From Balamuthia mandrillaris (taxonomy: Eukaryota): DNA of 64,000 nt. The notes beneath the pieces were generated by a model. It searched no databases. It was not told the DNA's origin and saw nothing but the letters and a program-made list of their open reading frames with translations. Location: contig JAVKOQ020000007.1 in NCBI GenBank assembly GCA_031835245.2, forward strand, positions 124,001-188,000, read 5' to 3'. Positions 1-19,567 of this stretch are shown here, in pieces. The first letter of the stretch is position 1; the number at the start of each line of letters is the position of its first letter. The position numbers and the translations under genes are program-made.

Positions 1-404
1 TTAATTTGTCCAGATCGAAAAGGGTGAAATTGGGGGGCATCAAAGTGGACAGTGTCCTTACCTTACAGTGTTCAGGTTGACGACGAAGAGAAGAAGAACA
101 AGACGCCATGGTTACTTAGTGGAGGAAGAAAAGAGAATGCGAACGAACAATGAACCTTAGGCTGGCTTCTTCGGTGGTGGCAACACATTCATATAAAAAA
201 GATCGGCTTTGCACTCCAAAATAACGATGTAATACCAAAGTCTTTTTGTTAAAAAGAAAGTTTAAACAAAGATAACGACATGAGAGAGATGTTACGAAAG
301 ATGAACAACAAAAACTTTGACGGTCTGGCAACGTCGTGGCAAAGTAGCATACAATAGGCACGCTACCATCACCACAACGGTCCGTCCAACCCAAACCACG
401 ACCC

Positions 405-1577
405 TTACTTGTTTTCCTGAACCCACTGGTACACTTCGTCGCTTCCGCAGCAAAGGGTATCGGGGTTCCATGGACAGCCATGCGCCCTCAACCACTTCAA
501 CACCTCCAATTGGCCCGCCAAAGCGGCCCTCTCGCAGGTGCTCTCGTCCCAAGGGCACCCGTTCTCATGCGCCCATTTCAGCACCTTTAGGTTACCTTGC
601 TCAGCAGCGCCACTGCAGGTCTGCTCGTCCCAAGGACAGCCGTTCTCCCTTGCCCACTGCAGCAGTTCCAAATGGCCGTTCTCAGCGGCAGCAGCGCATG
701 TCCACGAGTCCCAAGGGCAGCCTTGTTCTCTCAGCCACTTCAAGGTCTCCACGTGGCCAGACCTGGCCCCGTGGGTACAAATATCGAGCGAGTCCCAAGG
801 GCAACCGTTCTCTCTTGCCCATTTCAACACCTCCAACTGTCCGTTGGACGCCGCCATCTTGCAGGTGACGTTGTTCCAAGCGCATTTGTTGTTTCGTGCC
901 CACCGAAGCACTTCCAAGTGGCCGTTGCGGGCTGCGTTGTGGCAAGTCCACTGGTCCCAAGGACAGCCTCTCTCCCTGGCCCACTGCAGCACTTCCAAAT
1001 GGCCGTTCTCAGCAGCGTAGGCGCAAGTCCTTTCCGTCCAGTTGCATCCCTGTTGCAAACGTGCCCATTGGACCACATGCAAATGGCCATGGAAGGCAGC
1101 AAAGTCCATCACAAAGTACAAGAAGGCTATCTTCCAATCCGGTCTTTGTCGCATCCACTTCAGCCCTTCCAGATGGCCTTGCTTTGCCAGCACGGTGGCC
1201 ACCTGCCGCTCCTGCCAAGGACAGCCGTACTCCACGGCCCACTTGAGGACCAACAGATGACCGCCCTCGGCAGCCGCCAAGGCGGTCTGGCGATCCCAAT
1301 GACAAGCCTGTTCCAGGCGGAGCCACTGCAGCACGTCCAGCTGGCCCTGCCCGGCGGCTGCCGCGCAGGTTTCATGGTTGGGCACCAAGCCGTTGCCCAC
1401 CGCCCACTGCAGCAACGCCAGCCGGCCGCACAGGTACTTGACGGAGAGGCGGTTGCGCAGGTGGACCGGGGAACAGCGGTACCAGCGGTTGCAGGTCCGG
1501 GCCGCCACGCCCACCGCGTGCTTGGGTAGCTGCGCCATGATGAGCGCCACCAGCTCTTCTGGCAAGTCGTCCTCCAT
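405..1577 (-). CDS. F-box + ankyrin-repeat protein (Acanthamoeba/Pandoravirus-type GCPWD repeats), intron-less
   Basis: N-terminal F-box-like LPEELVALIMAQL..ARTCNRW followed by ~25-aa repeats AA..GHLEVL.WARENGCPWD. Likely ATG at 1577 (MEDDLPEE). Confidence 0.85.
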   Translation of the reverse strand: MEDDLPEELVALIMAQLPKHAVGVAARTCNRWYRCSPVHLRNRLSVKYLCGRLALLQWAVGNGLVPNHETCAAAAGQGQLDVLQWLRLEQACHWDRQTALAAAEGGHLLVLKWAVEYGCPWQERQVATVLAKQGHLEGLKWMRQRPDWKIAFLYFVMDFAAFHGHLHVVQWARLQQGCNWTERTCAYAAENGHLEVLQWARERGCPWDQWTCHNAARNGHLEVLRWARNNKCAWNNVTCKMAASNGQLEVLKWARENGCPWDSLDICTHGARSGHVETLKWLREQGCPWDSWTCAAAAENGHLELLQWARENGCPWDEQTCSGAAEQGNLKVLKWAHENGCPWDESTCERAALAGQLEVLKWLRAHGCPWNPDTLCCGSDEVYQWVQENK

Positions 1578-2035
1578 TTCTTTTTCTTCGCTCTCTCTCT
1601 TGTTAGCGTTACTGTGCTTTCCTTTCTTTCTTTCTTTGTGTGGTGGTGAAAAGAACAAATGGAGCGTAACACGACTTGGCAGGTTTAAAATAGCTGGTTT
1701 TTGGTAAGATTTTCCCCGCCGCGAAGACCACCTTAAGACCCAACAGCCTCCTTAAAGGTGAAACACCCGCCAAGCGTGGCGTGAATAAGCGAAAGGTTGT
1801 GTGTTTTCTCTGGAAATGCCACGAGTTTGCTGAAAATGGACCAAATAAGGGAGGTATCCTTAGCACGAGGTAACGGATTCATTTAGTTCACGATGGGCCC
1901 TTTTTTGGTTGCCGACCTGGGTGCTAGGATATGATCTCTATTTTTGTCCTCTCCAAGGCAACCGGAGAAATGTAATAGCTTTCTTGGAAGGAAACAGATC
2001 GAGAATGAAACCACATTTCTCTATCCTGTTTCACT

Positions 2036-2255
2036 TTAAAAAAAGAAGAATTTCTTGGTTTTTTTCTTTCGCGGTAAGGACAGACGGAGGCCCGTGTTGG
2101 CAGGTTCTTGGGGGTCGTAGGCCAACGCATCGGCCACCAGCTCCCTGCAAAACTGCTCCAATGTCTCTCTTGCGTTCGTGTTTTCCTTTGCGCTCGTCTC
2201 CGCAAAGTCCATTCCGCATTCATCGGCCAACTCCTTATGTCCCAAAACCATTAAC

Positions 2256-2303
<48 letters not shown>

Positions 2304-5300
2304 AGAAAGAGAATAAATAAGGAACGTCATGGATCAAACAGGTGGGACGACAGAACAAACCCTTGCTTCCTCAGATGTCAGCGCATGGAAATCTGGTGGT
2401 ACGTCCACCTTGGTGGCCACCATTATTTTGGGTACCCCATCTAGCGCGTAACGCTCCACTTCAACATTCCAGTTTCTGAACCAATAGCGCAGGGTAAATC
2501 CAAAAGGAAGAAGGAACAGAAGAAGAGGAAGAAGAGAATAAACAAGAAGAACAAGAGGGGCAAGAAACGAGAACAAGGAGAAAGCTTTGAACAAAGCACA
2601 AGAAGTAGCACGTACCTGACATTTTCAAAGCTTACACGATCAGTTACGTCGTAACACAATAACACACCACAAGTTCCACGGTAGATATAACGGTTATGAT
2701 TGTCGCCATAGAATCTTGGGTTCAGGTATGGTTCCCACTGTCATAAAGAGCAGGTGAGCAGAGAGCAGGTACATAATTTAGAAAGCAGAAGAGAGAGAAC
2801 CATTTGCACTTTGACTTTGTAGCTATCCAAATCAAGTGTACCCATTTTCTAAAGGTAATGATAAAGAATAGAGAAGTTAACAAAACCTTGTGACCTGTTC
2901 TTAAGACCGTCCACTACGCCGTACAGTACACAATACGGTTGCAGAATGACTTAGCGTGTTTTTTGTCCTGCTAAATTGTCCACTATCGCACCTAATTTAG
3001 CAGACAGAGGGCCGGTAGTGGACGGCGAGAGTGTCCGTTGGTTGTAGACAAAAAGTAGCCTTCATCCGGCACTCGCGGTCATATGCCGCCAGAGCATGCG
3101 CTTGAGAGTGCCGTTAAAGCGCTCAACAACGGCTTGTGAGTTTGGTTTGTATGGCTTTGATGTAATGTGTGCAATCCCATTCTCTTCCATGAGCAGATGA
3201 TTGACGAACTCTGCGCCGTTATCTGTTTGCAGGATCTTAGGCTGCTGTTCCGCCAATAATGGCCGCAAGTGTCGGGCCACATTCGCCGCAGTCTTCTTGG
3301 TGATTGGGAACGCCCACGCATACTTGGTGAACACATCGATAGCCGTAAGTATGAAATTGTACCGGTCGTTAAACCCGCGCAGTGCACTGACATCCACGAG
3401 ATCCGCTTGCAGGCGTTCGTGCGGCGCCTTCGCCCGAATAGGTTGTTTCACTGCAATCTTACGAATCGGCTGATGTAATTGGTTAGTATGATTCCGCCGC
3501 AGGTATGCCGCAACATCCCGCCGAGATATGCCGATGAATAACTCCACAGCGCGTTTATATAACTTATCCCGGCCGTATGCCATTGTCGCCGGGCTTGCCA
3601 TCAGTTCGCCGAGCACACGATCGATAGCGCCGGCGGGTACTACAATCCGGCCATCATACTTCGCCACAATGGTGTCTTCTGTTCCTTCTTGTAGCCGGAA
3701 GTGCCGCCACTTATCGGCAAAACCCCGCTGTTCTTTCGGCAGGAGATCCGGCAAAGTATTTGTTTGTAAGTATTCCAGCCCGGCATCATATGCTTCATCT
3801 GTGAATTTGTACTGAGAGTAGTCTTTCATTCTCACAGTATACTATACTAAGGCCGACATAAAACGATTACACGTTATCGGTTGACAGACAATATCGGCCA
3901 GTGGATATAAGAATTTCAATGTAGCCTTCGTCAGAATAGATTATATGACCATAGATTGACGAAGGCTACATATTTCGGGGAAGGTAGATAAACTTAGTAA
4001 ATTGTTATTATTACCTCTTCTTCTGTGCTTTGCCGCAAGAAGGCTACTCTCTGGCCAAAAAAATATTTACATTGATGTATGCTTACTACCGCCGCCAGAT
4101 TTACATCATTCGCAGTCCCTTACCGGACTGTTTCTTCTTCATTGAGGCGCCTAGAAAGCTATCAAACTGTGCGCGACTCTTTGGTGTTGGCTTCTTTGTT
4201 GCTTTGGCACTTGGCTTACTCTTTGCCGGCTTCTTCTTACCGGACCCGATCATTCGCATACCACTGCCAGACTTCACAGTGCTACGCACGTTGGCTCCGC
4301 CAACCCCCAACAACTCGCGCACTTTGCCTTTCGCAGTGGACTTCGCACTATCAGCTAGTTGTTCGATCTTGCCGGTTGCAATAGGTTTGATAACGCCTAA
4401 CAATTCCTTTCCCAAAGTACCAACTAATCCTTTAGGATTCAGCGCATTCTTGCCTTTTCTTATTAACTTCTTCAGGAAGCCCCCGCGCTGTAAGTGCGCC
4501 GGACCATACCTGTGTAGGTTTCTACGGTCTATCAACATTGTTTTCGCCGGTTTCACTAAGTATTATACTACAGGCGACATAAAAACAGATCATGTAAAAT
4601 AATCCCGCACAATAGCTTCATTGGCCGCTGTTGGCTCCTGATCGAACACAGTGATGATATCTGCCGGCGATCTACCGGCGTCTCTTTGCTGAATGTAGAG
4701 GACACAGTAATAGCCGCAGAGAACTGTTTTGTCCGTTTGTGTCTGTGTTGAAGGATACAATATTGTGCGCTTGGGTGCAATCCGCCGCAGAAATCGTTCG
4801 AGTTCTGGTGGTGGCACTACTCCGTATGAATCATAGTACTCAACGAATGGGCTGCTCTTCTCGCAATATACAGCGACCCAATGCGAACCCGGTTGCGAGC
4901 GTTTGTCATAGTTGAAGATAAAACTCGCCGGTAAGTTGATTTCTTTTGTCTTCACCTTCTTGGCTTCATCACGGGCAAACACGCCGGCAAATGAAGGCGA
5001 ATCAACCAACATTTCTGTCAACTCAAAGTTGCTCAGAGCGTGGAACCTTTTTTTTTACTGCATTTGCCGCATCCACCGGCTTGCGAGCCCATTGTGTATC
5101 CTAGACGTAATCCTCTGCCTTTCCTTGGCTTTATCTTTCTTCTCACATTACCCTTGCCCGCATTTCCAGTCCCTTTGGGACGTCGAGCACCCGACCCAAA
5201 CAGTTTACCCAATGCGCCGGTTGCCGTATCAATGCCTTTATCAATTAATTTATCAGCAACACCCGCGAGAATCTATTAAAGGCCACTAATACTGGTAAGA

Positions 5301-8300
5301 ACCCACCAACTTGTGGCCGCATCTTGGTCAACTGTGTTTTGCTAAGCCGCAATACTAATCCCCGGTTATCTTTCGCCGCACGCTTTAGCTTCTTCGCCTG
5401 TGTTTTCGTAAGCAGCAGGGCGGCATTAGGTTCAGCTTTCAGTTGTTTTCTTGTGAGTCGAATGTTGGCGCCATGTTGCGCCTTGATAGCCCTCCCTGTG
5501 GGCTTCTGTTGTTGTTCGCTGAGGAAAATCGGTATGTTGTTGTAGTTCGCAGACATTGTTGTTGTATGCGTTGAGAATACACAGTATACTATACCCGACA
5601 AAAAAAATATTGGATTGTGATATTTAGCGGCGATCACAGAGGATTTGCAGACGCTCTCCATCCCCTTTATAATCGAGCTCAGCCTCCGCCTCAACAACTG
5701 CTAACACGACATAGGAAGTAGGTAAAGCATGCGTGCCAATAGTGGCGCCTGGTGTGAACTCAAGGACCATATCCGCAGCAGTTTCATATGAGAATGCGGC
5801 ACGGTCTCCCTTGCTGTATCCGCAATCGAATACAAAGATAGGGTATATGTTTTTGAAGTCTTCATAGGTGACGATACTACCAGACTCCGTATCATTACAA
5901 TGTCTTCCAGCTTGCAAGAAAGATCTGTACAATCGGATATAGTTTTCGTTAGAAGCATGGAAGAAAGGTGCGTACTCAGTCTTGGGCACAGGTTTGCCGT
6001 TAACCATCAGCCGCATATTCTGCATATTCAGAGTATCATATACTGCCTTGTTGATGTTCTGCACGGCTTGCCTAGTGCCGGACAACCGTGCGTTATCTTG
6101 GAACACGACATAAACGCGCTTTGGCTTACGAAGATTGCTACTAAGCAGGAATCTTTGCCGGCCAGAACCACTCATAGGTGAGCTCTGGATAACAAACAGG
6201 TCATTGTAGACGACAGTCTTAGTGGCACCCGCTGCGAGCTGTTTATCCAGCATAGTTTGTACAGAGAGAGAAGCCTGCAATTGAGGAATCCATAAGTTCA
6301 GTTCATCAACTTTGATACGCAAATCATCAATAGTTGCTGTGCCGTGCCTGTTGTTCCTTGGATAGCCAAATTATGTCTGTTGAGAACCAAAGCCAAAGTA
6401 TGACTAGTGCCGCGCCAGACAGATTTGTGATGATACCAGAAGCGGCAAACATCAGCAATAGGTAAGAGTAGAGTGTGAGTAGCACTTGCAAGGTTTTTAT
6501 CGGCCCTGATCTTAAATGATTCAGAATACTTTGAATTTCTTTCAGTTAGCTCTGTGCCGTTATCATTGAACTCCTTTATTTCTACATCAGCACCAGTATA
6601 TGCCTCACGATAGAAACCAGTTCGGGAGCCTAGAGACCGGAGATTGTCTTCACTCCAACAGACCAGATTCATAACATTTGCGGCCACACCAACGGATGTC
6701 ACGTCGCTAACTGTTTTGTTATCAATACTCCATTTGACACGCTCGAAGAGATGCCAGCCGCCGTTAGTAAGAGCCGCCACATGACCAGCAGTCGCAACGC
6801 CGGCGGTTGTGGTAAGTGCAGTGCCATTGGATTGAGTTATGCTACATTTCACTTCCAAATATGCCTCGTTAATCAGCAGCCATGAGGACTTATCGTTCAC
6901 ACGAATAAGGATCTCACTGGTTGGCACGCCGGTGGAAGTGCCACTAGTGGTATAAGGATATCTGACGTCTTCACGATAGGTGGTAGTCTCATCAACGACA
7001 TCGCTGCTGAAGAGATCCCACTCTTGGGTCATTCTCGGGTCGAGTTGTTTCACGGACATTGTTTACTTTACTGAATGCAGGTACTATACTAAAGCAGCCA
7101 ACAAAGAAAAAAATCGTAATATTTACAGGTAGGCTTACCCAACTCACCCAAGCGGGCAACAATGCTGCGGGTGGCAGTGTTAATATCTTCTTCTGTTATA
7201 TCCGCGTGGCTTGTCTTACCGGCTTCAACCATCCGCAGGTAGACTTGATAGCCAACGTTAAGTATTTCACAAAATCACGCTTGGCTTCACGCCGAGGGCA
7301 TTCAAGATATATGCTTGTTTGCTGCCGGCTTCATCAAACACATGCTTCTTTTTATGCGGCTTCTGGATATGGTTGGAGAACATAATCGTTTTGAGTTGCC
7401 ACACAGTAAGGTTTAATTTCTCACATATTTCATTATTGCAAAGGTTCTGCCGGCATAATTCCCGGACTTGATCAATAATTTCCGTCATCTTTGCTCTGAA
7501 CTAATACACACTATACCAGACATAAAAAAATCAATAAATAAATAATTATTGAAAGCCCGCGCCATATACCACATAGTCTATCTTTGCGGCTAAGTCTGTT
7601 GCAAGTTTAGCAAGGCCTCGGATACGCGGGTGGCCCTTCAATAGTTGTCCTGCGTCCTGAATAATGAAGTTCTTTAACTCTGCTGTTAGCATTCCGTTGG
7701 CCGCAAGTATGTCATGTATGAACAGTTGGCAATTGTATCTAGTGGCACTATACAGCCACATCCGGCGTTCTCCCACGGCTTTCAAAGTGCGGGTAAGCAT
7801 TGCGGCAAGCGTTGGCCGGCCTCTCACATTAACCTGCATTGCGCCGCCATTATGCGGGTGTAGGTCTGCTTCACTGGCCAGCCGAGCGCTTACCACTTGA
7901 TTCTTCTCAAGCCGGATAACTTCGCCGGTTTGGAGCCGAAGAACAAGATACAAATGATATAGATTATCGTAATTCAACTTGCGCTGCATTCGGGATAAGT
8001 CTCCTAGTGTTAGGATATTGCCAAGAGTAGTTATTGCTTGTTGGATTGGGCTTCGCACAACGTACATTGAAGTAATCACCGTGTTTCCTTTGGGTTCCAC
8101 AAGCCGGCGGGTTGCCGGTGGAGCATTCAACCTGAGGCCGAACATCTGCCGCAGTGTTGTCTTCACTGCATTGTAATTATCAACGAGACCTTCGCCTTCC
8201 TGTAGGTTAGTTGGATGATTTAGTAGTAGCGATTGCTTGGAATTACTCGCTTTTTTTTTAACCTGCCACCACGCACAGATAGGAACTTCGACTTCCTTGC

Positions 8301-11300
8301 GCCACAGCTTCCGCACTTTGTTAACTGATATCGCCGGCCGTTTGCCGCTACTTTCACAATTGGTTTGCCGGAGTCGGCCGTCTTTCGTTTACAACGGGGA
8401 CAGTACGTAGTCATTGTTGTTCACTTTTTCTTTGTCTGGTATACTATAGGAGTGAGAAAACCAACGAACGAAAAATAAATGACTGATTACAACATTGGGC
8501 AATGGCATATTGTTATCAACACTAATAAGAAGGTTGAGAACACGCCAGAGAGCCGCCGGCTTGTGCGGAAGTTTACGCGGGTTATACAGGATGTGTTCTC
8601 GGAGGAGAACGCAGATGATATGCTTAGAATATTCCAACGCGGGAAGAACCGTGATCCAATCTATTCAATCCAACTAACTTCATCAATTGAGTGGAAATCA
8701 GGCCGGCAAAAGCGGCTGCATGCGCATATTCTTATTTTCATTACGTTTGCCAAAGACAGAAGCTGCGGTTGACATATGACCGGCTGCGGGGATCTGTGGA
8801 AGAAGCATTAGGTATACCGATACATTTCAATGCTAAGTTCTTGGATAAGAAACAAACATTAGAGCAAATGCAGCAGAACCAAATCAACTATGTCCTCAAA
8901 GAATACTTAGGCATAGATAGGAAGAAGAAAGAAGAAGGAGAATAATCGAATATTTTTTTGCCAAGATTTATTTGGCGGCTTAAGTATAGTTGGAGTGAAT
9001 GGAGTTCTCGGATGAACAAGTGAGGAAGCTCTTGCAACATATGTTGGATTCCTGGGGTAAACCAGCGAAAGAGGTAAGTGAAGAAGTTGTTGTTGAACCA
9101 GAACCTATTGCGGAACCATTGCCGGCGGTAAAGAAAGCAGTGCGAAAGACAACAGCCGGCAAGAAGGCGCCGGCAAAGAAGAAGGCTCCGGCGAAGAAGG
9201 CGCCGGTTAGGAAAGCCGCAAGTAAGCGAGCTCCGGCGAAGAAGAGTGGTGCTGCGGCGAAAAAAGAGAAGCCAGTAAGTAGACCGCGAGCCGGCGAGTT
9301 ATCCAAGTATGTCTTCCAACATTATGCGGAGGAGTTTGATAGTGATGACGACAATGTAGCCGAGGATGAGAGCGGTGAGGAGGCCGAAGAGTAAGAGGTA
9401 TGTTATTTTTTTGTGCCGGCTGAGAGTAGCCTTTGTTCGGCAAAGCAAGGAGAATAAGAGATAATAACTGTTTATGACTTCTACCGGCCTTCTTCGGTTA
9501 GATGTAGCTTTCGCCAATCTATGGTTATATAATCTGTTCTGACGAAGGCTACATTGAAATTCTTATATCCACTCGCCATATGGCGAAGGCTACATTTATT
9601 GAAAAAAAGATAACCACCCACCATTTATTGAAAAAGTTATGCCCACTACAATAGAAAGCTACAATCACCTATTTGTTCACTGTACCAGCTAAGCTAGTAT
9701 TTGTAGCTTCCGTCGCTGAAGAACATCTTGTCGACTAATTCTTGTTGCAAACCATGGCGTTCCATAGCTCGCCTTCTCACCATCATAGGGTCTTCAGGAC
9801 GAGTCCCCGGCGCCGCTTCTTCCCTCGTAATCTGAGGCGAACTCGGCGGCGAGTGTACTGAGATAGCATCCAACCCGGCGGTAAGAGACTGCATCGGGCT
9901 TGCAGGTTGTGCCGGCCTACCTTCTGGTTCTTCGCCTTCTTCTTCCTCTTCTTCGTGCTTTACTTTCTCTCGTTGAGAAACCAGCGGAGGAACGCTTTCG
10001 TCATCCGGGAGAGGCGCCGCGTCTGGTTCGCCCTCGAAAGCAAACTTAGTGAAGTTATCGGCTTGCGATTCGCTCTCCTCTTCATCGGCTTCTTGCGCCA
10101 CTTGCTCTTCCTTCGTGCGGTCCTCTTCATCTTGTTGCAGGAGATTAACGCCTTTGATCGTCGGGTGAGCGCCGCTCTTCAGGTTCTTATCAAACTCCTT
10201 CCATTGCTCGTGGTTCATCTCTTGGTGTACCATCGCCACAGTCGGTTGCAGGCTAACGTTAGCTAAGCGGATCCTCTTCTTTTCTTTGCCAATGCGCTTC
10301 CAAAAGCTTGCATGCTCCGGGTCTCTGCTAACATAGTCTCGGAACTTGCTGGCATACTTTGTCGTGTAAGTACACCAACTGCACGGCATATAGATGATCG
10401 CTGGGTAGCGCCTAAGATCATTGTAGTAGCTAACATATCGGCGGACCATAGAATGTGAAACTATCGGCGTAGGGCCGCCGCTGAGGAAGATAGCCAGGCT
10501 CCTAGCGCGGGCTGGATCAGTCGTCCTAAGCTTGGCCACTAGCGCCACGTAATACCCAACTTTCGAGGCATAGGACTACTAGACTCCTTGGCAGCAAAAA
10601 CAACAATATTAATCGTGTTGGCCAGAGTTTGCGAATCATTCCTCACCATAGCTAACTTCTTGAAATCCGCCATAATCGCCTCGTCGCTACCCGGATCATC
10701 CTCGAGGGCCGGCGGTACAACGTCCAAATAAGTGATGTCCCCGGCTGCCATTGTACGTTCGACATACTTGTACTGCTCGTTGTACCAGCGCATGAAGTCG
10801 TGGTCGTCGTCGGACATAGCAGCGTGAGAACGTTTCTTCTTGGGCTTTGGCTTGTCTTTCTCACAGGCCTGTTCGATGAGCTCAGGCGTCAATAGGTTCA
10901 GCATATTGTCAATACCGTCGGTGCCGAGGAGTTCGCAAAGCACGCTAAATTCTGCGTCGTTTAACTTGCGGAGCATCTTGAAGATCTCAGCGGCGTTTGC
11001 CTTCTTTCGGCCGACCTGTCGTCCTTCCATATTGTGTGTTGGTTTGGGCTGCGAAAATTCTCCTGTCACAAAAAAGCCACGTGATAAATTTTGGCGACAT
11101 GGGAAACCTCCATTTTTTAGGACTCCTCATAGTTATATATAATTCTTGTCAGGAAAGACAGGACGACGGTCAAAATGGCAGAGGAAACCTGTGCTCCAGC
11201 AAGTGGGCAAACAGCTCATGAAAAGGCGGCTCACATAGCAGGGGCTTACAACACAAAGATAGCAGAGGTTCACACAACCACTTCACTAAAGGTTGCGGAG

Positions 11301-12682
11301 CTGAACCGTGAAGCCTTATTGCGCAGCGCTAAAATCAGTGCGAGAGCAAGATACTTCCAAGGCACGGCTACATTAATAGGTGCAGTTGGAGTGCTTGTAG
11401 GGCTTGTTTATCGATTACGAGAGGAGTCAAGCTCCTTGAAGATGGACCTTGAACACACAAGAAGTGATCTCGAAGGACTGAAGCAAAGATACATACTCTT
11501 GAAGGACCATAGAAGTTTTCCCAAGCCAGAAGAAGACAACAAACCACTTCCTAATGAAAAGGACGTGGAAAACGCTTATCAATAAGCTACCAGTAGTAGC
11601 TTAAAAATAGCCACTTCACTTTGTAGCAACTGTCATCACACCATTCTTCGCCCTCCACAACCGAAGTGTTTTCTCTTTTTCTTTTTTTCTATTAAATTCT
11701 TTTTCCTCTGACCTACTTGTTAATATTAAGACCGTCCACTACGCCGTACAGTACACAATACGGTTGCAGAATGACTTAGCGTGTTTTTTGTCCTGCTAAA
11801 TTGTCCACTATCGCACCTAATTTAGCAGACAGAGTGCCGGTAGTGGACGGCGAGAGTTCTTTCGTCTTTGTCAAGCAAATATTGAGAGGTACGGTCTGCG
11901 TACTGGATCAGGTGGCGAAGCTTGGTGCTGATACGTATCGGTGAATGTGCCATCCTGGAGTCATTCAAAAACAACAAAGCGAGAGAGAGAGAGAGAAGAA
12001 GAAACATGTAAGTTTAAAAACGGAGCTAGATTAATGCGTTGTATTATCATACGTACGATCATCCTTGTGGCTAAAGATGTCTAATAACAAACGGTTGGTG
12101 TAAGTAAGGTAACTGTCAAAAAAAAAACACAGCTTCACGCCAGCACACTAAACAAGAACTATGCGTTTAATGTGGTTTGACATACCTTGCCAACGCCAAG
12201 GTCGCCAATAATTGCCAACTTCACGAGAAAGTCATAATCGCTAGTAGTTCTATCTCGTGGTCTCACATAAGGCCGCAGTCCTTGTTCTGCCCGTGCCTTT
12301 CTGCGTTTCTCTCTTTGTTCAATGAGTCCTTTGCGGTGATCCAAATAGATTTGTTTCCATTGGCCATCGTTGTTGCTAGTTGCCGTCAACTTGGATGGAG
12401 CCACCTTTGCTAGAAATGGTTTCCAAAGTCTTATAGAAAAGACAAAGCAAACAAGTTGGGTATTGAGGCTTAAAAGAGGCGGAGAAGGAAGCTATGACGT
12501 ACATAGGCTCGCTGCCAATGCGACGAAAGTGTTTGCAGACATGGGTTACGTGAAGGAGGTCATTTACACTAGTGAGGAAGCTGAAAGCGTACAATAACAT
12601 CTCGTCTGGAAGCCGGCGAATACGTACGTAAAGAAACCTGTTATACAGCAAAGCAAGAGAGGGAAAGAGAGAGAGAGCGAGG

Positions 12683-12714
<32 letters not shown>

Positions 12715-12916
12715 TAAAGAAGGGTTAAAGAAGAAAAAAAAAAGGAGAAAAGCCAGGAACAAAACTGTCGATGTAGTCAGCAATGTGAACACATTGGCAT
12801 TCTAGGGCAATGTCGGAGGCAGAACCATTGTTACCCACAGCGCTGACGTCCGCTCCGTTCTGCACCAACAGTTGCACCACCAACGGGCATTTGGAGAACG
12901 GCACAAGGCAAGGCAA
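2036..12916 (-). CDS. Host ankyrin / F-box / divergent Rab-like GTPase-domain protein, multi-exon, interrupted in an intron by the 9-kb element; 5' end uncertain
   Basis: Exons join in frame across GT-AG introns. ANK (VVQLLVQNGADVSAVGNNGSASDIA) and F-box (RLPDEMLLYAFSFL..VCKHFRRI) precede DYDFLVKLAIIGDLGVGK|TSLATRMI|DGTFTDTYQHQASPPDP|[element]|KMGTLDLDSYKVKVQM|WEPYLNPRF..YRGTCGVLLCYDVTDRVSFENVR|..VPKIMVATKVD..|..FAETSAKENTN. Confidence 0.8.
2902..3030 (+). repeat. Left direct terminal repeat (LTR-like, ~129 bp)
   Basis: Identical to 11727-11855 except G3010 vs T11835. Subterminal inverted repeats CCGTCCACTAC (2907-2917) / GTAGTGGACGG (3015-3025) and an internal stem CTGCTAAATT (2968-2977) / AATTTAGCAG (2994-3003). 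Confidence 0.95.
3062..3829 (-). CDS. Retroviral-like (rve, DDE) integrase, Polinton-type; C-terminus appears truncated
   Basis: LQADLVD...LTAIDVFTKYAWAFPI...LQTDNGAEF...PYKPNSQAVVERFNGTLK gives a complete D-D-E triad. Polinton-like N-terminal GRDKLY..ISRRDV..YL..QLHQP. The ORF stops shortly after the catalytic E. Confidence 0.93.
   Translation of the reverse strand: MKDYSQYKFTDEAYDAGLEYLQTNTLPDLLPKEQRGFADKWRHFRLQEGTEDTIVAKYDGRIVVPAGAIDRVLGELMASPATMAYGRDKLYKRAVELFIGISRRDVAAYLRRNHTNQLHQPIRKIAVKQPIRAKAPHERLQADLVDVSALRGFNDRYNFILTAIDVFTKYAWAFPITKKTAANVARHLRPLLAEQQPKILQTDNGAEFVNHLLMEENGIAHITSKPYKPNSQAVVERFNGTLKRMLWRHMTASAG
3900..3971 (+). repeat. Internal inverted repeat, left copy (72 bp), itself containing a 15-bp-stem hairpin
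   Basis: Reverse complement of 9502-9573 with 4 mismatches. ATGTAGCCTTCGTCA (3919-3933) pairs perfectly with TGACGAAGGCTACAT (3957-3971). Confidence 0.9.
4101..4538 (-). CDS. Basic virion core-like protein with putative adenain cleavage sites
   Basis: Lys-rich ORF with QRGGF followed by an amphipathic segment, plus GSG/GKG motifs. Lies next to the protease gene. Confidence 0.6.
   Translation of the reverse strand: MLIDRRNLHRYGPAHLQRGGFLKKLIRKGKNALNPKGLVGTLGKELLGVIKPIATGKIEQLADSAKSTAKGKVRELLGVGGANVRSTVKSGSGMRMIGSGKKKPAKSKPSAKATKKPTPKSRAQFDSFLGASMKKKQSGKGLRMM
4590..5054 (-). CDS. Adenain-like cysteine protease (virion maturation)
   Basis: FAGVFARDE...FIFNYDKRSQPGSHWVAVY...EYYDSYGVVPP...QTQ....CGYYC shows the H-D-Q-C order of adenovirus/Polinton proteases. 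The frame is open to 5054 (ALSNFEL) with no ATG before 5012. Confidence 0.9.
   Translation of the reverse strand, partial: KKRFHALSNFELTEMLVDSPSFAGVFARDEAKKVKTKEINLPASFIFNYDKRSQPGSHWVAVYCEKSSPFVEYYDSYGVVPPPELERFLRRIAPKRTILYPSTQTQTDKTVLCGYYCVLYIQQRDAGRSPADIITVFDQEPTAANEAIVRDYFT
5033..5556 (-). CDS. Polinton-type basic core protein (LLLTKTQ..LSKTQ..VGGFL), frame break near 5275
   Basis: MSANYNN..LLLTKTQAKKLKRA..LRLSKTQLTKMRPQVGGFLPVLVA. The -1 frame continues ILAGVADKLIDKGIDTATGALGKLFGSGARRPKG..KGRGLRL..CSKKKGSTL* ending at 5033. Confidence 0.6.
5624..7059 (-). CDS. Double-jelly-roll major capsid protein (Polinton/adintovirus hexon-like), frame break near 6320-6370
   Basis: ORFs 6298-7059 and 5624-6322 join to ~470 aa. 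Motifs EAYLEVKCSI, NGGWHLFERVKWSIDNKTV, KPKRVYVVFQ, MRLMVNGKPVP, Y.RLYRSF and TYEDFKNIYPIFVFDC are typical of Polinton-family MCPs. Confidence 0.85.
7267..7488 (-). CDS. Small putative helix-turn-helix protein; probably continues in another frame toward ~7100
   Basis: NNEICEKLNLTVWQLKTIM looks HTH-like. The +1 frame after KPSVI reads EILNVGYQVYLRMVEAG.. The element's shared upstream motif precedes the ATG. Confidence 0.4.
   Translation of the reverse strand: MTEIIDQVRELCRQNLCNNEICEKLNLTVWQLKTIMFSNHIQKPHKKKHVFDEAGSKQAYILNALGVKPSVIL
7546..8259 (-). CDS. Permuted NlpC/P60 (LRAT/PPPDE-like) papain-fold hydrolase
   Basis: His motif (LYHLYLVL..LEKNQ) lies upstream of YSATRYNCQLFI, resembling the LRAT-family Y...NCxxF. 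No ATG at the start of the frame; joined to the upstream Zn-ribbon ORF through an A9 tract. Confidence 0.55.
   Translation of the reverse strand, partial: KKKASNSKQSLLLNHPTNLQEGEGLVDNYNAVKTTLRQMFGLRLNAPPATRRLVEPKGNTVITSMYVVRSPIQQAITTLGNILTLGDLSRMQRKLNYDNLYHLYLVLRLQTGEVIRLEKNQVVSARLASEADLHPHNGGAMQVNVRGRPTLAAMLTRTLKAVGERRMWLYSATRYNCQLFIHDILAANGMLTAELKNFIIQDAGQLLKGHPRIRGLAKLATDLAAKIDYVVYGAGFQ
8220..8414 (-). CDS. Small Zn-ribbon protein (DUF5679-like)
   Basis: YCPRCKRKT...NGRRYQLTKCGSCGARKSKF matches the CxxC..NGR..CxxCG.KS.F pattern. Confidence 0.7.
   Translation of the reverse strand: MTTYCPRCKRKTADSGKPIVKVAANGRRYQLTKCGSCGARKSKFLSVRGGRLKKKRVIPSNRYY
8479..8945 (+). CDS. HUH-superfamily rolling-circle endonuclease (Rep-like), frame break near 8755
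   Basis: Motif I-like WHIVINTN, motif II E.....KRLHAHILI, and motif III INYVLKE (YxxK) in the -1 continuation 8691-8945. About 155 aa, with no helicase domain. Confidence 0.75.
8999..9394 (+). CDS. Histone H1-like Lys/Ala/Pro-rich protein with acidic tail
   Basis: AVKKAVRKTTAGKKAPAKKKAPAKKAPVRKAASKRAPAKK repeats and an acidic C-terminus. Confidence 0.65.
   Translation: MEFSDEQVRKLLQHMLDSWGKPAKEVSEEVVVEPEPIAEPLPAVKKAVRKTTAGKKAPAKKKAPAKKAPVRKAASKRAPAKKSGAAAKKEKPVSRPRAGELSKYVFQHYAEEFDSDDDNVAEDESGEEAEE
9502..9573 (-). repeat. Internal inverted repeat, right copy (72 bp)
   Basis: Reverse complement of 3900-3971 (68/72 identical; the 37 bp at 9537-9573 are perfect). Confidence 0.9.
9694..11030 (-). 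CDS. Element protein of unknown function (ORFs 10539-11030 and 9694-10548, probably one gene with a frame break near 10575)
   Basis: The ORFs overlap and the -1 frame reads SYASKVGYYVALVAK. Contains a degenerate CxxC finger (CSWCTYTTKYASKF) and an acidic low-complexity tail. Confidence 0.5.
11175..11585 (+). CDS. Element protein with one predicted TM helix and a coiled coil
   Basis: ATG-initiated 136-aa ORF with hydrophobic ATLIGAVGVLVGLVY followed by heptad-like LKMDLEHTRSDLEGLKQRY. Confidence 0.5.
   Translation: MAEETCAPASGQTAHEKAAHIAGAYNTKIAEVHTTTSLKVAELNREALLRSAKISARARYFQGTATLIGAVGVLVGLVYRLREESSSLKMDLEHTRSDLEGLKQRYILLKDHRSFPKPEEDNKPLPNEKDVENAYQ
11727..11855 (+). repeat. Right direct terminal repeat (LTR-like)
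   Basis: Same-orientation copy of 2902-3030, followed immediately by TSD GTTCT(T). Confidence 0.95.
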
Positions 12917-13083
12917 AATGGGAGAGTCTTGTCCTTCTCCGGAGTGGACGTACTTAGCTTGTGCCCGTTTGCAATTTCCCAGGGGGAATCAAATCACACT
13001 ATCGGCCAACCAGAAATCAGAGATTCTGTTTCTTCTTTCTTATTCTTTTGCCTCCATGCAAGGCCGTGCCGGACTTTGTGTTC

Positions 13084-13172
<89 letters not shown>

Positions 13173-13377
13173 CTCTTCGTTCACCCGCGTTCATCAGTTC
13201 CTCTCATCACCGAACATAATGGATCAGAAAAAAAATATTATGATATATTAGTATTTGTGTTATTTCCATTGCTCTTGCAATACATTTACAAAACTCAAAG
13301 CCCAGCCAAAAAAAAAATATCTTTCTTTATCACAAAAATAAAATAAAACACCAACACCAACACCAACACCATCAAAC

Positions 13378-14512
13378 TCAAACTTGGTCTTCTGCAGAAG
13401 TCGAAGAATCTGAGGAAGTCTCCTTATCATCATCAAAGTCATTCTTCTTCTTGCTCTTCTTGCTCTTCGTATTCAGGTTCTTTAACTGCTTTCTCAATCC
13501 ATCGTTCATACCATTCCTAACATCGCCGTCAAACGCTTCGTCGTCTATCGACTTGTCTCCTTCCGCAACAAACTCACTCCTGTTAGTGACCCTGAACAAG
13601 AGCCCAGCCACAGCGGACGCAAAGAAGGGGCCTAACCAATAGACCCAAACATACTCAAACTTGTCGCCACCTCGATCGATAGCATTCACAATGATGGCAC
13701 CAGTCATCACTGCTGGATTGAAACCGCCTCCAGATATTGGCATATGCTCTGTTTCAGAGGTTTAGAAAGAGAATAGATGATGAAAGAAAGATGAGTCCAA
13801 AGCGACTCAGAGAATAATACGGACGTCCAACAGCGACAGCACCAGCGGTAATGCTGAACCCGATGGCCAGACCGTAAAAGGAGTTACCCACTTGGGTCCG
13901 TGTGGTGGCAGTTTGAATGACGGCGTTGATGAGGAGGAAGGAGAAGAAAAACTCCGCTGCAAATGCTTGTCCAGCGTTGAAACCGCTTCCAGGGGTGACG
14001 GAGAATGTCTGATAAGAAATAGCCCAGTAGGTCTATTTGTTCCAAAACACACAACGTAAACAAGCTGTACAAGTTTAAAAACAAAACAAAAAAAAATACA
14101 AAAAGGAACGTTACCAATGCGCCAAGAAATGCTCCGGTGAATTGCGCACACCAGAAACACACAAGGTAGAACCATGTAAGCTTTCCACGTCCGGAAAGAA
14201 ACACTCCCAAAGAAACCGCTATTTTTTGTTAACAAAAATAGCGTTAAAGAAAGCAAATACAGAATAAAAACAACAATAAAATAATAAAAAGAGAGAAAAG
14301 GTACAAGGGTTGAAGTGTCCGCCAGATATATGCCCACCGGAATAAACCAGTATCATGAGCGTGGCCCCAATGCTGAAAGGAGCCAATTCTCCCCCGGAGA
14401 GAACGGACAAACCGATGGACAGCATGAACATAAAAGTTCCCACCAGTTCCACGATGAACGGAGCAACCTTTCGGCAAACTCGGTCCAGCTGCTCCGGCAT
14501 GATGTAGGCCAT
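13378..14512 (-). CDS. Aquaporin / MIP channel, multi-exon
   Basis: VELVGTF, GGHISGGHFNP(S) and PISGGGFNPAV signature motifs. Confidence 0.92.
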
Positions 14513-14999
14513 TTGTGGTTCTTCTAAAAGTAAGTGTAAAGAGTGAAACGTATGTGACAATAGCAAACAAAAACTGAAAAAAAAAAGCTAGCCGTGTTAA
14601 CAAGTTAAAGTTGGAACGGAATACAAAAGACAGGAGTGGCAAAACACGAAAACATCGTATGAAAAAGGGACTCATATTCTCCGAAGAGACGTCAAAACAA
14701 CGTTATTCCACCTAGAAAGGTTTGTTACAATTGGTTTTAATCACCTATTCAAAACTGTGAATTAATAATTAATGAACCTTTATAGGTGATTTGTAACCAC
14801 ATCGAACGCACCTGCGAACAACCCGGCAACGAACCAAATGGACAAAACAGCGTTACTCTGATATTCATTTTTTTTTTCCGTTGTTTACTTCAGTTTTTCT
14901 TTTGCTTTTCTATTTATCCTATTTGTTTGTTTGTTGTGCTTTGTTTTTGCAAATAGATCATAATAAAAAAAATGAACATTTAAAAGAAGGTTTAGAAAT

Positions 15000-15049
<50 letters not shown>

Positions 15050-15074
15050 AAAGGGAATGGCGCAATCACTACCA

Positions 15075-18066
15075 TCAAGAACAAATAGAACGAAGGTAAT
15101 CGTTGATGAATTGTTGATAGTGCTCCGCAGAGAGACCAGCCGCCACCGCTTTGTCATACAGCTTATGAGCCTGCATTTGGATGTTGCTCTCTTTGCCGCC
15201 CTCCAACAAATAGTTCAGCTTCGCTGCAACCGCCGCGCTCACAAAGTATCTTTAGGGGTTTTTTTTTTCGTGAACGTTTTGTGGCATGAAGAGGAAAAAA
15301 AAACCAAACAAACAAACAAACAGAAAACAAAAAACAAAAACAATGGATCAAAAAAAACAGAAACAGCAAAACTAAAGAGAATCATTGTTGTACCTTTTGT
15401 TAACATCAGCCAGCTGCTGTTGCAACCGTTCCATCTGTTCCTGCTGCTTCTTTGCTTTCTGCTGCTGCTCCGTTTTTTCCTCCTCGAAAATCTTTTCTTT
15501 GACGTCCATCGACAAAACAGTTTTTCTTAACTCCAACTCCAATTCATGTTTGCTCTTCAGCGCTTCCTCCAGTTCTTTGCGAAGTATTTCTGGGTCGTGG
15601 CAATCGCTCAACGACAAAGAAGCAAGAAAAGAGGAGGAAGAGGAGGAAGAAGATGATGAGGAAGAAGATGATGAAGAGGAGGATGATGACGATGATGAAG
15701 AGGACGAAGCAGAAGAAGGAGAAGGAGAAGAGGAAGTCAGAGGAGAGATTAAGTCTTTTGCAGAATGAGCGAGAGCAGCGGTGAGAGAGGAGGACGGTTG
15801 GTGGTCACGAAGCCGGTGTGTTTCCTCTGTCATGTGATTTAATTGTGCTGTTAGGCTTGCTATTTCCACTTTTTGCTTTCGCTCTTTGTCTATATGAAAC
15901 GAGTTAATAAATGAAAAAAAAAGATAACAATCAGATAAGAAGAAAGAAACCTTGAAGCTGAGAAATAGTTTCTTGAGCAGCAGCTAACTCTGTCCGCTGT
16001 TTGCGCAAGACCTCTTCCACGTCTTCTTCGATCCGCCTTGCATTTTTCTTGAGTGCAATAGCTTCCTCTTCGTGCTTCCGTTCTTTTTCTCTCATTGTCT
16101 AATTTGCAAATAACACAAAGAGGAAACCGAAAGAAAGCAAAAAGGTAAGTCGGCGTTGTTGTTTGTGGTTAGTGTGAGTTTGTAAAAACCTGAAGTTGGT
16201 TATCTTTTGACTTGATGATCGCCAAACAATCTTGCAGATTGCCTCTAAGTTGTTCAGATTCACGTCTTTCTCCCTCTAAGTTGTTCACCAATATCTGGAT
16301 TTGTTGTTGCAATTCTGAAAAGAGACACAGATGAGATAAAGAGATAGAATGAGAGGGTGCAATAGTACGTAAGATGATAAACTGCGCTTGTTGGTCTACA
16401 GCCACAAGTTGTTCCTGCGTAGCATCCTGATGATGAGGCTGCTGTTGATGATGTTGCATGCCAGCATGATAGCTGGATCCCAACGCAGCTGGCGATTGAC
16501 TAGCTAGCTCATTATGAGGAGGGCTTAGAGAAGAAGGAGGAGAGGGAGAGTGCCTCGAAGGAAAGGACCCTCCCGACGATGGAATGCTTTGATAATAAGC
16601 GACATCGTAGAAAGAATGACGTGGCGCTTTTCTTCTATTTCTGGAGTTATTGTTCGTTTGCTGCGCGGTTTTTGCAGATTGAGTCCCACCTTCAGAAGCT
16701 GTCGCTGCGTTTTCGTTGTTATTAGTTTTGTCATTAAAGTTGTCGCTGTTGATGTTGTTGTTGCTCGCTGTATAATGAGTTGCAGCTCGAACATTTCTGC
16801 TTTCTCGTCGCGAATTTTCCTCCTCTTCCTCCTCCAAGAAGGAAGTCGGTTTGCCAACCATCGGACTGGAAAGACTACGAACGAGAACATGAGGAGAAGA
16901 ACCAGAAGAAGACGACGACGATGACGAAGGAGATGGTGGTGAGGAGGGTCTGTCGATTGTTCTCCTCCCCACAACACCAAAACTCCCTACAACGCTTACA
17001 CTGTTTCCTCCACTTTCACCGGAACTGCCGCTTCCACTTCCACTGGCAGAGGTGTGTCGATTGATGAGGCTGCCACCACCAGCCGGCATGGCAGACGCCA
17101 ACAGCTCGTTGGCTCTCATGTGCACGGTCTGGCGTTGCAGCCGGATGGAGCGCTCCACGTCCTCCTTCTGCGACATGAACAACTCGCGGTACTTCTTTAT
17201 CCCATCCAACCAGTAGAGCATGTCCACCTCGGAGGAGGCCACCAGCTTGTAGTCCCTGTCCTTAGTGGCTATTACGAAAGGCCATGAGGTCTGTTGCTTA
17301 CTGCTGTTGCTTTGGTTGCTACCACCTCCGGTGCTGCCTGGTGGAATGCCTAACGCCCCTTTGGAGTAGCATTGGCTGTAGATGCGTGTGCATTGCTCCA
17401 ATGCGATGAAGCCCAGTTCCTGTTGTCATCGTTTTGTTGTTTTGTCACGAGGTTGAAGAAGAAGAAGAAGAAGAAGAAGAAGAAGAAGAAGAACAAGAAC
17501 AAGAACAAGAAGAAGAACAAGAAGAAGAACAAGAAGAAGAACAAGAAGAAGAACAAGAAGAAGAAGAACAAGAAGAAGAAGAAGAAGAAGAAGAAGAACA
17601 AGAAGAACAAGAAGAAGAACAAGAAGAAGAACAAGAAGAAGAACAAGAAGAACAAGAAGAAGAAGAAGAAGAACAAGAACAAGAACAAGAAGAAGAACAA
17701 GAACAAGAACAAGAAAAAGAACAAGAAGAACAAGAACAAGAAGGAAGAAGAAGAAGAAGAACAAGAAGAAGAACAGAGACAAAGACAAAATTGAAGAAGA
17801 AGAAGAAGACGAAGAAGACGAAGAAGAAGAACAACAACGAGAACAGAGAGAATCCATAGAAAGAAGAAGAATCGGTCTTTCAGTACCTCACTTTTAGGAG
17901 ATTTGCTGTAGGAAAGTTTGCCTTTCGAAAGCCAAAACCACCGCTTCTTGAAGGTGCGCACCAAGCCCTTCGCTCCTAACTTGTACAAATAACCTTCCAA
18001 TTGGTAGAGCTTTTGGTTTGTTTTGTGTTGTGGGAGATCGATCGGGAATTTTTTAAAAAAATCCAT
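15075..18066 (-). CDS. PH-domain + coiled-coil protein, multi-exon
   Basis: LEGYLYKLGAKGLVRTFKKRWFWL..ELGFIAL..FVIATKDRDYKLVASSEVDMLYWLDGI is a PH domain. Downstream exons are Ser-rich and coiled-coil. Confidence 0.8.
17455..17835. repeat. (AAG/AAC)n microsatellite in an intron of the PH gene
   Basis: About 380 bp of GAA/CAA triplets. Confidence 0.95.
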
Positions 18067-18451
18067 TTGAAATAAAAGAAAGTTAGTATTCCCGACACAC
18101 AAGACACAACCCACAAGTCCTGACCATACCTTCTCCTGTTCCTCAAAGGAGTGCAACATCTTATGGAGGCCTCCCCACTCCTGCCACTATTAAAGCCTCC
18201 TTTGTTTCGGCGATCTTTTTTTTCTGTTTTTGTGGACAATCCATAGGGATAACCGAGTGACGTCAAAATTTTCGTTTTTAGACGCGCATGACATCAGCGT
18301 AGTTAATTAATCGATTATCTGAGATTTTTAAATAAATATTAGAAATCGGTTAATATTTTAAATATTACCCAATATAAAGTATATATTGCAATATTTTGTA
18401 ATTAATATTAAAATATTGCAAAAATTATAAAAGCAGCGTCGAATTGTCGTT

Positions 18452-19511
18452 TCAGTTGACGACTTTCTCCTTTGCGGCAGCGATCTCCTTGTCCTTGAGC
18501 ACGCGGCGGAGGATCTTGCCGCTCATGTTCTTTGGGATCAGGTCCACAAACTCCAGCCCACCGCGAAGCTTCTTGTAAGGGCTGACTTTGTCGTCGAACC
18601 AAGCGATGAGCTCCTCGGCGGTGAGGCTGTGATCCTTCTTCAAAACGACGTAGGCTTTGGGCAACTCTCCCGCCTCGTCATCCGGTTTCCCCACCACAGC
18701 GCAATCCGCAACTGCTGGATGAGTCAACTGCATTTATAAATGGCGGACATGAGAAGGAAGAAAGTCAAATGAAGCAGAATATTGAAGACTAAAGAAAGAC
18801 CAACACACAACGAAAGCAAAGAAAGAAGAAGAAAAACAAACCAATTTGCCTTCAAGTTCAGCGGGAGGAACTTGGAAGCCTTTGAACTTGATGAGCTCTT
18901 TGAGGCGATCCACCACAAAGTAGAAGCCGTTCTCGTCTACGTGACCAATATCTCCTGTGTGCAGGAAGCCATCCTTATCCATTATGGCTGTTGGTTATCG
19001 AGCCATTAGTCTTCATAGAACAGAGCAAGAGAGAGAGAGAGAGAGAGAGGAGTAGAAAAAGAAAAGAGAAAAAAACAGAGAGGAACAATAGAAAAGACAG
19101 TAGGACAAGAGAAGAGAGGCGAAGAAAAGAAGAAAAATGAACCAGCAGTAGCATCAGGACGCTTGTAATAGCCTTTTTGTTTGAGATGGTGTTGTGTGAT
19201 GAAAACATAATAGTAATCAACAAAAAAAAAAATAAACAAACAAACACAAAAGCCAAACAAAGTGATGAAAAGGAAGCTACCTTTCATGATATTGGGACCG
19301 CGAACACATATTTCACCATCCTGGTCAACGCCCACAAACTCACCGGTAGCGGGGTCTTGTATTCTGGCCTCCAAGTTGGGGAGAAGGATGCCAACCGATC
19401 CTGCTGGCGCTTCCCTGGAAGGTGCTACAGAAGGACCGAAATGAAGAAACAATTAAAAGAAAAAACGTTAACAACAAAAACTATCAGCTTTGTGGGGAGG
19501 GAGGGAGAGGG

Positions 19512-19567
<56 letters not shown>

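Follow-up and report, generated by a model that had tools for sequence, protein, structure and literature searches.

A 64,000-nt stretch of the Balamuthia mandrillaris genome (assembly GCA_031835245.2, contig JAVKOQ020000007.1, positions 124,001 to 188,000), hereafter the window, holds an element of 8,954 bp at 2902..11855 that is bounded by direct repeats and carries genes for a double-jelly-roll (DJR) major capsid protein (MCP), an adenain-like protease, an rve integrase and a small HUH Rep-like protein (Table 1). The two 129-nt repeats differ by a single mismatch, and they are flanked by a target duplication for which readings of 5 and 6 bp (GTTCT and GTTCTT) fit equally. Contigs from X1 and X2, two runs of one sample that is possibly the source of the window, join 2896 directly to 11856 with six ambiguous letters at the joint, which means that an empty allele exists beside the filled one and that the element ends are right. 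The insertion is polymorphic, the provirus being on one allele only. Each repeat contains complementary arms that begin 5 nt inside each tip at symmetric positions, and folds at -21.7 kcal/mol, a value reached by one of 300 dinucleotide shuffles. Because of these arms the whole element has short inverted tips besides its direct repeats: the outer tips show a short subterminal inverted match of 11 exact nt (about 16 with mismatches), and no long terminal inverted repeats (TIRs) were found at the element ends. Sharp ends, 129-bp direct repeats and a target-site duplication had been described in the first-pass annotation of this DNA, and both the repeat alignment and the empty-site joint in X1 and X2 uphold them.

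Table 1. Features of the element and its borders (positions in the window).
Feature	Position	Strand	Remarks
Left target-site duplication	2897..2901	.	GTTCT; a 6-bp reading, 2897-2902, fits too
Left direct repeat	2902..3030	+	129 nt; inverted arms 2907-2917 and 3015-3025, one long stem
rve/DDE integrase, 255 aa	3062..3829	-	Pfam rve E 2.8e-12
Internal inverted repeat, left arm	3891..4065	.	81% to 9404-9581; T-run and GAAGGCTAC hairpin array
Basic core-like protein, 145 aa	4101..4538	-	24% K+R; GG motif
Adenain-like maturation protease	4590..5054	-	Pfam C5 E 0.032; no promoter motif of its own
Basic core protein	5033..5556	-	GGFLP motif; frame broken near 5270
DJR major capsid protein, Polinton/MELD type	5624..7059	-	Break near 6345
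Small helix-turn-helix (HTH)-like protein	7088..7488	-	HTH_5 E 0.047; break near 7271; 3' end approximate
Conserved Polinton/virophage protein	7546..8190	-	HLY and YNCQ motifs
DUF5679 zinc-ribbon basic protein	8226..8414	-	E 2.9e-5
Small helicase-less HUH Rep-like protein, ~155 aa	8479..8945	+	IVINTN, HAH, YVLK; break near 8750
Histone-H1-like Lys/Ala/Pro-rich protein, acidic tail	8999..9394	+	HC2 E 5e-7, low-complexity match
Internal inverted repeat, right arm	9404..9581	.	Pairs with 3891-4065
Uncharacterised protein(s), two open reading frames (ORFs)	9694..11030	-	No promoter motif
Uncharacterised 136-aa protein, hydrophobic segment	11175..11585	+	No promoter motif
Right direct repeat	11727..11855	+	129 nt
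Right target-site duplication	11856..11860	.	GTTCT
Promoter motif starts	3865-, 4586-, 5607-, 7107-, 7529-, 8462-, 8426+, 8966+		Strand given after each start; TATA 14-34 nt before ATG

The complementary arms at symmetric positions in each repeat might also mean that the 129-bp units are modules resembling miniature inverted-repeat transposable elements, the rve enzyme having moved the whole as a one-off composite transposon and the virus having other ends. Such an origin would agree with the match of the integrase to an IS481 transposase model (E 9e-27, under the curated cutoff) and with the fact that the related variants described below have just 14 nt of the repeat in common, and yet we hold it to be improbable, given that the target duplication lies at the outer ends only, that the empty allele is without any unit, that no third copy of the repeat arm exists within the 64-kb window and that the variant's own end opens with the identical 14 nt at the identical place. 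The 16-nt repeat tip has matches in 36 viral contigs, none bearing a related gene, and three 21-nt matches fall inside tailed-phage genes. A TAATATTAA before the right repeat, which we took to be geminivirus-like, was dropped because the variants differ at 11722-11726.

The two halves of the MCP on either side of its frame break match identical full-length proteins. With phmmer, the C-terminal half finds 346 proteins at E<=1e-3, the best being a Balamuthia paralogue (55%), followed by others at about 30%; one of the 20 matches looked up bears an informative name, the Trichoplax MELD hexon (E 1.4e-20), and PF21738 is matched by 28 of 32 aligned capsid members. The AF2 model of this half (pLDDT 83.8) resembles the DJR capsids of PBCV-1, iridovirus, Sputnik, faustovirus and mavirus, and among the Foldseek PDB matches listed all are DJR capsids (best E 3.9e-6). 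Foldseek puts capsids of nucleocytoplasmic large DNA viruses (NCLDVs) high while the sequence relatives are of the Polinton/MELD type, Zora profiles lying outside this comparison. In a tree of 125 C-half sequences (matches of 400 aa or more, plus the Balamuthia paralogue), the two Balamuthia proteins form a long branch whose neighbours have no support. The DJR capsid named at first reading is thus confirmed by profile and by predicted fold, and the MCP phylogeny proposed along with it gave no settled position. Profiles of the capsid and of the 7546..8190 protein had no match among PDB sequences, nor did a two-sequence capsid alignment among viral and prokaryotic genome contigs, and a search for a longer homologue of the N-half found none; the one viral-contig match to the capsid query was a spurious ribonucleotide-reductase locus.

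The integrase has its D-D-E and ends about 20 aa past the catalytic Glu, without the approximately 170-aa C-terminal part seen in two Polinton integrases; the rve assignment stands on its Pfam match, with a truncation that had not been part of the original claim. In the protease, His, Asp, Gln and Cys align with metagenomic Polinton/virophage proteases (E 7e-18 against locus L005, in a small database), and these aligned residues together with the C5 match bear out the adenain-like label. The 7546..8190 protein falls in unnamed, mostly viral clusters (Atlas 0.96) and is likely a hydrolase (a lipase or peptidase) of the permuted papain-like kind, this fold being our assumption. Used as a query, this putative hydrolase returned one viral and 19 metagenome loci, those read being a virophage-like contig and Polinton-like contigs with a DNA polymerase B that is primed by a protein (pPolB). 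Genes for rve, protease, zinc ribbon and hydrolase occur together in metagenomic contigs L003, L007 and L018, and each of the two read in detail encodes pPolB, an ATPase and a penton-like ORF. L018 and L007, which have the zinc-ribbon, hydrolase and protease genes in common with the element, are Polinton-like contigs with an rve-chromodomain protein, pPolB, an ATPase and a capsid barely detected by the element's capsid profile. Integrase, protease and HUH queries against viral contigs gave no relative of the same architecture.

Several genes were looked for and not found. pPolB has no Pfam match and two pPolB queries did no better than E 0.55 on the element, and reverse transcriptase has no Pfam match among its 15 ORFs, both in agreement with the first-pass annotation. 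No helicase was found in the element. For the packaging ATPase, no coding frame holds a credible Walker A and two queries did no better than E 0.46, a negative that holds for one copy of the element; two penton queries gave only a weak match inside the MCP, a sequence-level search in which the right-hand ORFs were not folded. That no penton or packaging ATPase was found, like the truncated integrase, the inverted repeat arms and the seven frame breaks treated below, goes beyond what had been described at first.

The HUH assignment is built on three motifs that occur in order, IVINTN, LHAHILIF and YVLK, next to ITITTN, LHYHILVF and YMLK in SIRV1 ORF119. A nine-sequence rudivirus Rep profile places this ORF first among 575 window ORFs (13.7 bits, the next 4.8), and none of 2000 shuffles of the read-through protein reaches its score, the alignment spanning the frame break; the Pfam match to PF23343 (E 0.033) and an Atlas match weakly indicate these families as well. 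The ORF very probably encodes an HUH protein on these sequence grounds, and since it has its own copy of the promoter motif described below, it belongs to the unit. Its halves found nothing significant in phages, plasmids, PDB sequences, PHROGs or NCBIfam, and none of the loci L001-L021 scored like it (best 7.6 bits). In a related variant the matching islands stop at the second His and resume before YVLK (joint 8727->8853). The HUH endonuclease of the first-pass annotation is therefore moderately backed by motifs and profile, and unconfirmed by structure. A different function can be imagined, in which the protein resolves or processes the hairpin ends of a linear genome (by a rolling-hairpin or resolvase activity), or in which the ORF is not HUH at all: its best profile match is to the Reps of linear rudiviruses, the helicase is missing, the repeat folds to a strong stem, and the HUH model is poor with no significant fold match. 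This we think has only a small chance of being right, because the YxxK motif III is present, direct repeats suit circle release, and helicase-less HUH proteins can borrow helicases (PMC11253617).

A 24-nt motif made of a T-run, TGTCGG and TAGTATA is found in eight copies between 3842 and 8989. In a leave-one-out test, none of 110,034 host positions scores as high as any of the eight sites, and the element itself has no further site above 8 bits; T-runs also follow several of its stop codons. The late promoter of African swine fever virus is TATTT...TATATA (PMC5294985), its transcription terminates at poly(T) (PMC7163114), and virophage activation has been ascribed to shared promoters (PMC8547959). 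The bipartite motif, in its likeness to asfarvirus late promoters, suggests dependence on a giant virus, a pointer that the first-pass annotation, with no mention of this eight-gene motif, did not contain.

Seven frame breaks interrupt this copy of the element. Assembly error was rejected as the cause of those near 5270 and 6345, where an X1 contig is identical to 5120-7007 throughout and ungapped; over the same span the X2 contig shows a single gap. If decay was neutral, the one mismatch between the repeats would scale to roughly 34 substitutions in the whole element, as an approximation. Related copies exist: NCBI lists paralogues on other contigs, and contigs of related variants cover all 30 bins of the element in X1 and X2, with X1 depths of 83-126 as compared with 36 for the window's copy, depth not being a copy number. 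Among the matches listed, the variants are colinear with the element from 3070 to 11740, and 17 of the 29 rve variant differences listed, within the first 40 of 385 rows, fall at third positions (p=0.0045). The capsid and pX region (5152-6978) is matched by the variant in nothing but short islands at the 85% threshold, and rve is about 96% identical. Set beside the 55% of the NCBI paralogue, we read this as capsid-gene mosaicism within one genome.

Decay and relatives bear directly on a rival reading, in which a larger Polinton-like virus gave rise to the element by internal deletion or as a non-autonomous derivative, which would have lost the penton, the ATPase, the C-terminus of the integrase and perhaps a polymerase, or would rely on a helper element for them. 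The frame breaks fit it, as do the integrase that ends where Polinton integrases go on for about 170 aa, a variant contig with 933 extra nt at the integrase end, and the finding of an ATPase in all 257 near-complete virophages (PMC9952930). Against this, the listed variants are colinear with the element and the intergenic gaps are at most 299 nt, so extra genes could lie only at the left end or in unmatched stretches between islands, and the HUH gene carries its own promoter motif and hence is part of the unit. We regard a deleted derivative as unlikely, though with a chance large enough to be taken seriously, and the case of a deleted or one-off copy, which the first-pass annotation had named as its own undoing, is left standing by the decay and the differing ends of the relatives.

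We lean, by a narrow preference, to the reading that the element is a decayed provirus of a small Polinton-derived family in Balamuthia, in which the place of the protein-primed polymerase has likely been taken by a bare HUH Rep, and transcription is likely provided by a co-infecting giant virus. The small, rolling-circle, integrating DJR virus first proposed for this locus accordingly survives as the best reading, qualified in that the combination of capsid, HUH and rve has been reported before, that this copy is decayed and that the HUH call is unconfirmed by structure. In such a cycle, the late RNA polymerase of the giant virus would read the eight T-run/TATA promoters, after which Rep would nick in or near the stem-folding repeat and free a one-repeat circle of about 8.8 kb, to be copied by a borrowed polymerase and helicase. 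The genome would then be condensed on the basic core proteins and co-assemble with the capsid in an ATPase-free manner. As a one-repeat circle cannot directly yield two repeats and a duplication, a concatemer step has to be supposed: the integrase would act at the outward-facing inverted arms, excising a repeat-genome-repeat unit from a dimer or concatemer and inserting it with a 5-6-bp duplication, thereby producing LTR-like (long terminal repeat) ends without reverse transcription.

Several points weigh against this provirus reading. One preprint ties DDE integrases to pPolB rather than to other replicases (10.64898/2026.10.13.758929), and a DJR capsid without penton is hard to close. The positions of the promoter motif were set by eye, and the helper virus to which they point is hypothetical. 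The capsid tree, with a nearest-clade support of 0.27, leaves placement within Polintoviricetes unsettled. For the HUH protein, the Atlas match (0.89) is a recognition below threshold, the single-sequence model has pLDDT 53.6 and no significant fold match, with SIRV1 ORF119 ninth at E 2.0, and the rudivirus profile family was picked after the SIRV1 lead, motif III being unaligned in the local hidden Markov model. In one variant contig the match to the right repeat stops after its first 14 nt and a further 83 nt are unmatched, and another extends 933 nt past 3070 with no match there among those listed. The variants thus differ at both ends, so that direct repeats and a short gene set are established for the window's copy only, and it may be this copy alone that has such repeats and is without ATPase, penton and polymerase.

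Among known systems the closest in gene content are the Polintoviricetes (Maverick-Polintons, adintoviruses, Trichoplax MELD virus and Gosseviruses), which share a PF21738-type capsid, adenain-like protease, rve, zinc ribbon, basic core proteins, hydrolase gene and 5-6-bp target duplication. The element differs from them in that pPolB or a helicase-polymerase, an A32 ATPase and a penton were not found in it, in its HUH gene, in its size (9 kb as against 15-20 kb) and in having direct repeats with short inverted arms instead of long TIRs. The definition of Polintons rests on pPolB, rve, protease and ATPase (PMC11161782); the element is related to them and not a member as so defined, given that pPolB, ATPase and TIRs are wanting. 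In the Trichoplax MELD virus an SF1 helicase stands in place of PolB (PMC8502044), and Gulliviroviridae virophages are reported to have nickases like the circovirus Rep (10.64898/2026.10.13.758929). The first-pass annotation recognised no described family with this combination. However, Zoravirus (VC102) has a DJR capsid, HUH in about half and RVE in 57%, and VC218 has HUH in 28% and RVE in 62%, shares that are per group and not per-genome co-occurrence, and complete elements have direct or inverted terminal repeats (10.64898/2026.06.19.733378). The joining of capsid, HUH and rve has therefore been reported already, and the novelty lies in the Polinton-type capsid/protease module, the small size and the missing ATPase, whereas Zoravirus and VC218 have an NCLDV-related capsid module, ATPase, penton, Mriya48 and 20-30 kb, in a study limited to contigs over 10 kb (10.64898/2026.06.19.733378).

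Mriyaviricetes likewise share an HUH protein best matching SIRV1 ORF119 and have no DNA polymerase, but differ in their 35-45 kb, their helicase, ATPase and VLTF genes and the lack of an integrase (PMC11253617). Virophages (mavirus and endogenous mavirus-like elements) share the protease, an upstream motif read as a giant-virus promoter and, in mavirus, rve-mediated integration (PMC8547959), and differ in a capsid of another family, an ATPase and usually a penton (PMC9952930); mavirus in addition has pPolB, TIRs and the promoter motif TCTA. From the Virophaviricetes gene set the element has the protease, its ATPase was not found, and its MCP matches PF21738. The Finnlakeviridae phage FLiP resembles the element in its approximately 9 kb, DJR capsid, rolling-circle Rep and absence of polymerase and packaging ATPase, and differs in its bacterial host, internal membrane, pentameric spikes and virulent lifestyle (PMC7654751). 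Its Rep matches PF05144 while that of the element matches PF23343; the likeness is an analogy only, and since the host is eukaryotic the element is no member. LTR retroelements likewise carry an rve integrase, end in direct repeats that bear short inverted tips and make a 5-bp duplication, but the element has no reverse transcriptase or gag, no TG...CA ends and a DNA-virus capsid.

In the literature covered, subscription journals and supplements lying outside it, we found no element of about 9 kb that combines a Polinton-type capsid module with a bare HUH and LTR-like ends and is without an ATPase; the design is not described in the accessible sections of PMC11296320, 10.1101/2024.03.25.586562, PMC10120064 and PMC9952930, nor mentioned in those of 10.1101/2025.04.19.649669. 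One Discosea MCP is mentioned among Maverick-Polintons (Bellas 2023) and might be of the element's family. The element is apparently an undescribed small Polinton-derived lineage. A bolder reading, which we rate as doubtful, would make it the first eukaryotic counterpart of FLiP: a Polinton-capsid virus of about 9 kb without polymerase, helicase or ATPase, with a rolling-circle and possibly single-stranded DNA genome, parasitic on an asfarvirus-like giant virus of amoebae and leaving LTR-like proviruses via DNA-only concatemer cutting. If true, surveys that demand an ATPase or more than 10 kb would have passed over a new lineage of family level. The element would take the swapping of replication modules in Polinton-like viruses as far as a Polinton-type capsid with a minimal, HUH-only design. 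How an rve integrase produces direct-repeat ends without reverse transcription is a testable puzzle. From the promoter motif one would predict that Balamuthia, a medically important amoeba, has a giant virus yet to be isolated, and possibly a virophage-like defence, and the polymorphic insertion can be tracked by simple PCR and long reads.

The element, intron-free by the first-pass annotation, is densely coding, the largest intergenic gap being 299 nt; two NCBI gene models (P0001 and P0005) span frame breaks by predicted introns. The GG motif of the 4101..4538 protein, which has no family match, resembles what we take to be adenain cleavage sites, and the pX/pVII-like label of the 5033..5556 protein is presumed from its GGFLP motif. 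The protease and hydrolase genes, both motif-less, each follow a core-protein ORF and an A9 run (5048-5056 and 8251-8259, respectively), behind which they are in the -1 frame, an arrangement that could reflect programmed frameshifting or homopolymer loss. Programmed -1 frameshifting drew no support from downstream folding: no stimulatory structure was found at the runs, 69 and 210 of 300 shuffles being as stable. The arms of the internal inverted repeat are likely terminators or regulatory. The sequence GAAGGCTAC occurs six times in the element and not at all in 55 kb of host DNA, as inverted pairs near gene ends (3042-3071, 3891-4065 and 9404-9670), and the copies are possibly candidate binding sites of the HTH-like protein, or terminators.

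On the right-hand side, the two ORFs at 9694..11030 are likely one ORF in related copies, as the variant joint 10573->10616 would indicate. Between the divergent right-hand genes, 77 nt (11066-11142) are joined on the opposite strand in X1 and X2, which suggests a promoter segment inverted in related copies. Contigs of X3 and X8, from two other studies, skip host introns and so have an RNA-derived look; they also lie on right-hand genes (10114-11041 and 11191-11576), both without the late-type motif, a weak hint at host-driven expression of these genes in latency. The capsid genes are uncovered in X3 and X8, which was not used as evidence, and raw RNA reads X10-X12 (3-5% of each run) gave low-complexity element matches only, the host gene itself being barely covered.

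No tRNA genes were found in window positions 1-20000. The insertion site lies in an inferred 85-nt GT...AG intron (2849-2896 plus 11856-11892) of a host gene on the minus strand, whose segments match F-box (Pfam E 1e-9) and Ras-family (Pfam E 2.5e-4) domains, an F-box-GTPase fusion.

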